Part shown: piece after piece, positions 62,509-63,130 of the stretch
Numbering within the stretch: position 1 is the stretch's first letter
Layout: every line of letters begins with the position of its first letter
Source: Anolis carolinensis
Lineage: Eukaryota
Direction of reading: 5' to 3'
DNA: 64,000 bases
NCBI RefSeq assembly: GCF_035594765.1
Contig: NC_085843.1
Location: forward strand, 119,885,971 to 119,949,970
Program-made: the position numbers and the translations under genes
The notes under the pieces: model-generated
What the model saw: the letters and a program-made list of their open reading frames with translations, nothing else
Told to the model about the DNA's origin: nothing
The model's database searches: none

Positions 62509-63130
62509 TGTGATACCTCAGCCACCTTTGGCCCCTGACCCTGTGGCTATTGCTGACCAGGATGAAGACTTTGGTTTTCTTCCAAGTCAGCAAGATTCAA
62601 CTCCTTTCCAGATGCCTTCTATTGACATTGCTGAGCCAGCACCAATTAAGGATGCCCTTGAAACAGTGCCGGCTCTCCCAGATTCTCCGGACGGGTTAGC
62701 GTTTGATCGCAGGGCCTTTTTGAAAACAGAGAGATCGCAGAGACAAAGCTTGAGGAGAAGCGCCAGATTAGCGGAGCGTGGTGACTATGACTAAGCTTAG
62801 TTCTCTTGGGAAGAATTAGAGAGTCAGGCACCTGGTGCGGTGACTATGACAAGCTTAGTTCTCTTGGGAAAAATTGGAGAATCAGGCACCTGGTTTGGGG
62901 GAGCTTATGAACTGCAATAAAAGTATTGCGCTGGGAACTTTCCTTTGCGGTGTCAACATTACTTCTCACTGAGAAACATCATCGTCTCTAGCTCATGCAT
63001 CCCAAGCGGTCTGACAGTGCGCTTACTCCTGAGTAGACCGGGCGCCAGACTACCTTCTGCCCAAGTTTGGACTGCCTTTCAGCTCCAGTGTATCTAGCTC
63101 GTGCCTTGCCTTGAAATCATGTTTTTGGAC
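62509..63130 (+). mobile_element. LTR, probably Gypsy-like, 3' end not resolved
   Basis: Abrupt switch to CpG-retaining sequence starting TGTGATACC; same layout as 17952-18493 (open frame, stop, U3-like region); ~60-bp internal duplication; no 3' CA/TSD found. Confidence 0.6.

Follow-up and report, generated by a model that had tools for sequence, protein, structure and literature searches.

An integrase tail with an HMGN-like end motif is encoded in the long terminal repeats of chromoviruses in Anolis carolinensis

The open reading frame in the U3 region of a long terminal repeat (LTR) of Anolis carolinensis is the C-terminal tail of a Ty3/gypsy chromovirus integrase, and not a stand-alone gene. 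The tail is read through the polypurine tract (PPT) into the 3' LTR, and we put the chance at about even that its conserved end, RRSAR[LI]A, anchors the integration complex on the acidic patch of H2A-H2B in the manner of HMGN proteins. The element is of a known kind, with an HMGN-like motif on its integrase that has apparently gone unremarked. The analysed window is the whole stretch of 64,000 nucleotides from contig NC_085843.1, and it contains LTRs of two families, here called A and B (Table 1).

Table 1. Features of the two LTRs in the window
Feature	Position	Strand	Remarks
LTR fragment, family A, Ty3/gypsy chromovirus	62509..63137	+	first ~629 of ~905 bp, 3'-truncated
U3 reading frame, integrase C-terminal tail	62510..62794	+	94 aa + TAA
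Acidic, Pro-rich spacer	62510..62704	+	residues 1-65, net charge -11
RRSARLA, HMGN-like motif	62753..62773	+	residues 82-88
58-bp tandem duplication in LTR	62780..62894	+	two copies, stop codon inside first copy
Solo LTR, family B	17952..18493	+	target-site duplication GGCTT at 17947-17951 and 18494-18498
Family-B integrase tail in U3	17953..18129	+	altered motif 18088-18111; premature stop 18112-18114; family stop 18127-18129

The family-A copy in the window is a decayed LTR fragment from a known kind of element, with no pol upstream and no ATG at the start of its frame. A single open frame at this place had been proposed from the sequence and is indeed present. Its C-terminal end is RRSARLAERGDYD, directly followed by the stop, and the translation at the end of the frame, as read, is SLRRSARLAERGDYD, again up to the stop. 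The net charge is -11 in residues 1-65 and +4 in residues 66-94, and the frame contains 13 Pro. The proposed LTR start at 62509 also holds: among the 40 best genomic matches, 22 have their first base at query position 20, which is 62509, and the remaining ones, the self-match excepted, extend 1-8 bases further into the flank. The family-A LTR is ~905 bp long (TGTGAT...TGTAACA); a recognisable 3' end lies ~900 bp downstream in 25 of 30 fetched loci, and a 5-bp target-site duplication (TSD) is present in 24 of these 25. The window copy breaks off at 63137, and its missing 3' part was not found within 9.9 kb downstream of that position. The 58-bp tandem duplication recurs in other family-A copies. 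Elsewhere, the window holds a 143-bp tandem array (43124-43835) and an array of short degenerate units with (ATT)n runs (1877-2800).

In copies with an interior, the pol frame passes an SH3 domain and a chromodomain, crosses the polypurine tract (GDS followed by V) and enters the 3' LTR. Full elements have a pol end composed of SH3, chromodomain, PPT, acidic spacer, RRS[AL]R[IL]AA and a stop located 180-300 bases inside the 3' LTR. To locate elements with an interior, LTR starts with a purine tract ahead of them were sought; poly-G patterns gave no matches, and looser purine patterns picked out 6 separate places in family A and 14 in family B. Retrotransposon interior was found upstream at one family-A place (L103) and four family-B places, and the other places were discarded as TSDs or as purine runs that arise by chance. 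In L103, RT, RNase H, integrase and chromodomain are recognisable in decayed form, in the pol order RT, RNase H, integrase and with the PPT ahead of the 3' LTR. Here the chromodomain frame proceeds through GGGDS to the V at LTR base 2, and the family-B junction reads RRGSD followed by V. Read-through elements comprise L103 and L177 of family A, and L135, L139, L145, L159, L160, L162 and L163 of family B.

When the genome was searched at protein level with the SH3-chromodomain region, 150 scored matches resulted, 50 of which were examined. The reading from chromodomain to motif was free of stops at 29 of the 50 loci. A break after the junction was scored at 8, one of which is an intact variant; at 10 no junction was recognised, one of these reaching the motif; the remaining 3 could not be found. 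In another set of loci, which partly overlaps the first, 24 of 30 were in frame from chromodomain to motif. Three young elements among 8 longer stretches, with LTR pairs 99.2-99.4% identical, have a stop-free pol of 1361-1364 aa that carries the motif at its end inside the 3' LTR. Pfam domains upstream of the tail are RT, RNase H, integrase, SH3_Tf2-1 and Chromo, the last (PF00385) scoring above the cut-off at 25.8 bits (partial) in family A and 39.4 bits in family B, and no Pfam domain was found in the tail itself. The chromodomain of a sister copy (L172), aligned to HP1, has F/W/F at the Y/W/F cage aromatics of HP1. Searching for longer proteins with the tail alone gave none among 756 candidates, which is weak evidence.

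L103 (G000:C2:186.60 Mb, minus strand) is an internally deleted family-A copy, in which the first ~15 LTR bases are joined straight to mid-RT, yet the 5-bp TSDs match. A ~330-bp repeat is inserted in its chromodomain, and matches to this repeat overwhelmed a search made at DNA level with the interior of L103. The match of a search with the rve family was an unrelated gamma-type endogenous retrovirus and was set aside. L104 (G000:C1:344647000-344656900) and L073-L102 represent a large, very young gamma-type endogenous retrovirus family; a pol frame of 1187 aa without stops is present in many of its 150 scored copies.

The family-B LTR at 17952 has its frame in the register of the 62509 LTR, starting at LTR base 2, as the original prediction had it. 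This register is fixed because read-through from the chromodomain sets it, and a chance match was rejected on that ground. The Val at the start of both frames had been offered as additional evidence; it carries no such weight, because any LTR beginning with TGT yields Val from base 2. The two LTRs were said to lack evident nucleotide similarity, and no same-strand similarity better than E 0.5 was found between them. Contrary to the description of an RRSAR motif in the 17952 copy, this copy reads RCRSARIAA directly before its premature stop. TSDs are present in 23 of the 28 family-B loci with a recognisable end (30 fetched). Possession of the U3 frame is typical of each family, and solo copies lose it by decay: 22/30 family-A and 14/30 family-B copies remain open as far as the family stop region, 8/30 and 16/30 are broken, and the exact motif is retained in 14 of the 22 and 2 of the 14 open-frame copies, respectively.

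The window tail and the tail of a sister family share 36% identity across their whole length. In a tree built from 29 rows of the SH3-chromodomain region, families A and B cluster with their sisters (support 90/86, below the tool's strong-support threshold), separate from the rows of fish and other squamates, and family B is ~0.5 changes per site away from the rest; the tree covers that region only, has no Sushi-ichi reference, and its nearest named proteins are squamate and carp Tf2-like. An unrelated origin of the two LTRs was rejected, as both fall in related chromovirus lineages in this tree, and the idea of an undescribed system recurring in unrelated LTRs is superseded by the end of pol in such lineages. 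The register and motif common to families A and B are best explained by shared descent, which is the simplest account, and not by convergence. At G000:C1:137.90-137.91 Mb (L220), a sister-family chromovirus adjoins, or is nested in, a family-A element.

A single match to RRSxR[IL] in the window is unremarkable, with 0.3 expected per shuffled 64-kb window in six frames; the weight lies in its recurrence at the same place across lineages. The motif codons vary synonymously, with Ser encoded by TCA, AGT and AGC and Arg by four different codons (CGN/AGR). After 29 copies were thinned at 93% identity to 14 representatives, pN/pS was 0.18 in the motif, 0.14 in the chromodomain, 0.48 in the LTR spacer, 0.59 in the 13 residues preceding the motif (weakly constrained), 0.76 in non-coding LTR and 0.90 in the linker before the PPT (unconstrained), figures that are descriptive, as the pairs are not independent and the motif consists of 8 columns picked after seeing the data. 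Synonymous divergence peaks in the motif (pS 0.66), and 47 of 93 indels in the tail have a length divisible by three, versus 100 of 628 downstream. All 14 tail ends compared, a set selected for having the motif, share R, R, S and R without exception, and Phe, Arg and Glu upstream of the motif are also nearly invariant, while Leu replaces Ala at motif position 4 in 11 of the 29 copies. By these comparisons, the protein-level conservation that had been proposed is found across families of this genome.

The wider distribution was assessed with a profile search over 1.84 billion representatives, for which the best 150 matches were listed. The nearest named proteins come from Anolis carolinensis and already include the tail, P0002 and P0003 ending in RRSARIAAKNLAN. 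RRSxR was present in 0 of 81 tails of at least 30 aa, taken from 100 single-chromodomain matches among the best 150, with ~1 expected by shuffling; many of these 100 matches are truncated or chimeric gene models, which makes this a weak negative. The expected enrichment of RRSxR across squamates was not seen and was rejected on this count. Acidic tail read-through was found in matches from Rhineura, Vipera, Crotalus, Podarcis, Naja and Salvator. The three complete-looking squamate tails, from amphisbaenian (Rhineura), viper (Vipera) and rattlesnake (Crotalus) relatives, share the acidic spacer, which is followed by other basic clusters and not by RRSxR. Judged from these matches, read-through is widespread in vertebrate chromoviruses, and RRSAR was seen in this anole group only, among the best 150 profile matches and the anole elements. 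Cyprinid elements read through GGG[SN]V and have RGRPR after the chromodomain and an end of the type R[EA]xSP[EAV][YF].

In the fish-type integrases P0005-P0010, P0091, P0097, P0101, P0133, P0135, P0137 and P0138 (fish where named), the RGRPR after the chromodomain is AT-hook-like, and the LTR-encoded tail has the conserved end R[EA]xSP[EAV][YF] immediately before the stop, which is a different candidate targeting signal. Among the annotated gene models of Anolis, P0039 (LOC107983085 isoform X2) and P0028 have the whole LTR tail at their end, joined exactly at the Val. These joins suggest splicing, or joining of gene models, to LTR base 1, and possibly exonisation of the motif.

From the architecture of the elements, the read-through and the protein-level conservation, we infer how the tail may function. 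It would be translated as part of the integrase; the chromodomain would read methylated H3, and the motif, at the end of a flexible acidic tether, would attach to the nucleosome face at the H2A-H2B acidic patch, the two together forming a two-point tether of the integration complex to nucleosomes. Each LTR, whether in an element or solo, receives a copy of the tail, which is a passive remnant there. A chromatin-targeting or nuclear-localisation role of the kind originally predicted is retained as the best guess, whereas the notion of an independent LTR-encoded module is dropped, since the frame is the end of pol.

The proposed anchoring draws on known acidic-patch binders. HMGN proteins (RRSARLSA), tardigrade Dsup (RRSSRLTS) and yeast Dot5 (RRSARIAT) are described as having the RRSAR[LI] core, patch-contacting arginines and a short motif in a low-complexity region (PMC12487698, PMC13347269); the tail has the core with the equivalent arginines, likewise as a short motif in a low-complexity region. 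RRSAR of HMGN2 is reported bound to the H2A-H2B acidic patch by cryo-EM, whereas AlphaFold 3 is reported to have put HMGN2 in the wrong place (PMC12487698), and nucleosome binding by Dot5 is reported to need the arginines of RRSARIAT and the acidic patch (PMC13347269). Viral proteins such as foamy virus Gag, KSHV LANA and CMV IE1 are described as tethering viral DNA or the integration complex to chromatin by an arginine anchor, with foamy virus Gag among those that use the acidic patch (PMC9040877); these proteins differ from the anole tail in sequence and in the protein concerned. HMGN proteins have no other similarity to the anole elements, in which the motif is C-terminal on an integrase, often has Leu for Ala, and has putative binding. 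Against the acidic-patch reading stand the count of 0/81 for RRSxR and the different motifs that end other squamate and fish tails, the Leu at motif position 4 in 11 of 29 copies, and the shortness of RRSxR, so that the likeness to HMGN may be incidental. Somewhat short of an even chance, in our estimate, is the broader proposal that this would be the first HMGN-type acidic-patch anchor in a retrotransposon integrase, forming a two-point nucleosome reader with a U3-encoded anchor, and that vertebrate chromoviruses may generally use the tail as a fast-changing targeting slot, its end motif differing from one host lineage to the next: RRSARIAA in anoles, REPSPEY in carp and basic ends of other kinds in snakes.

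It seems unlikely that the tail, though part of the integrase, has in its basic end an importin-alpha-type nuclear localisation signal (NLS) and not a nucleosome anchor. C-terminal NLSs are described in retrotransposon integrases (PMC3605345), the different Arg/Lys clusters behind the same acidic spacer in other squamate relatives fit a loose basic signal, and RR-x13-RRSAR in several anole tails is bipartite-signal-like. The 13-residue spacing is, however, absent from family B, and conservation is no weaker at the Ser, hydrophobic and Ala positions than at the arginines. In classical NLSs Lys is critical, and the motif has no Lys.

We consider it decidedly improbable that the likeness to HMGN is incidental and that an amphipathic basic helix at the end of the tail contacts a different partner, such as DNA, the integrase itself or a host chromatin protein specific to the lineage. 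The near invariance of Phe, Arg and Glu upstream of the motif would fit such a helix, as would a low-confidence model of chromodomain plus tail with a helix at residues 143-169, and tail ends vary by host lineage like the targeting domains described for plant CRM elements (PMC3059260). The model has a mean pLDDT of 51.5 and misfolds the chromodomain itself, which is too weak to decide, and the 13 residues ahead of the motif are only weakly constrained. Conservation through a U3 DNA or RNA element, or by chance, is very improbable: U3 houses promoter elements and pN/pS is below 1 even in the non-coding control, but pS is highest in the motif, Ser occurs as both TCN and AGY, and tail indels favour multiples of three. 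There is next to no likelihood that a stand-alone peptide is made from the LTR itself; sister families have an ATG at LTR codon 2 and P0028 and P0039 fuse host sequence to the tail, but this ATG occurs in 6/30 family-A and 0/30 family-B copies and is Ile in the window copy, the frame lies at the LTR 5' end, in family B upstream of a TATA-like box, and solo copies decay. An example of a stand-alone LTR-encoded ORF is MMTV sag; the anole frame has no start codon of its own separate from pol and is continuous with pol.

Among known elements, the vertebrate chromoviruses (Ty3/gypsy, Tf1/sushi group) come nearest to those of the anole, with which they share RT, RNase H, integrase, SH3, chromodomain, PPT, TG..CA LTRs and 5-bp TSDs. 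The closest database relatives of the anole elements are the UniRef entry 'Gypsy retrotransposon integrase-like protein 1' (Anolis carolinensis) and carp 'Tf2 polyprotein' entries; fish chromoviruses differ from the anole elements in the tail end and in RGRPR after the chromodomain. In plant CRM group A, pol is described as continuing into the 3' LTR, where it has a targeting motif, and in some beet Reina elements as extending into the LTR with the chromodomain upstream (PMC3059260, PMC3605345). The anole pol likewise runs into the 3' LTR. In CRM group A, the CR motif replaces the chromodomain and is given as having an unknown partner (PMC3059260), whereas the anole elements keep a true, type I chromodomain upstream of the PPT, and their matches are scattered over many contigs. 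The word retrotransposon is absent from the accessible text of the review on viral tethers (PMC9040877), and that of PMC3601003 does not mention reading frames in LTRs. No annotation or paper was found that notes the LTR-encoded tail or its motif in vertebrate chromoviruses, and none that reports a retrotransposon integrase with an HMGN-like motif; the LTR overlap may already be on record in subscription papers, supplements or Repbase/Dfam notes.

To our knowledge, chromatin access and choice by vertebrate LTR retrotransposons have been little studied. The integrase tail explains the acidic open frame in many solo LTRs of this genome, which ends up in gene models. The motif is almost identical to two proven acidic-patch anchors, and its binding can therefore be tested directly with peptides and nucleosomes. 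If the motif binds, the HMGN-like motif, so far described in HMGN, Dsup and Dot5 in the accounts available to us, would be extended to mobile elements, and the anole tail would serve as a model for the targeting tails that plant centromeric elements encode in their LTRs.
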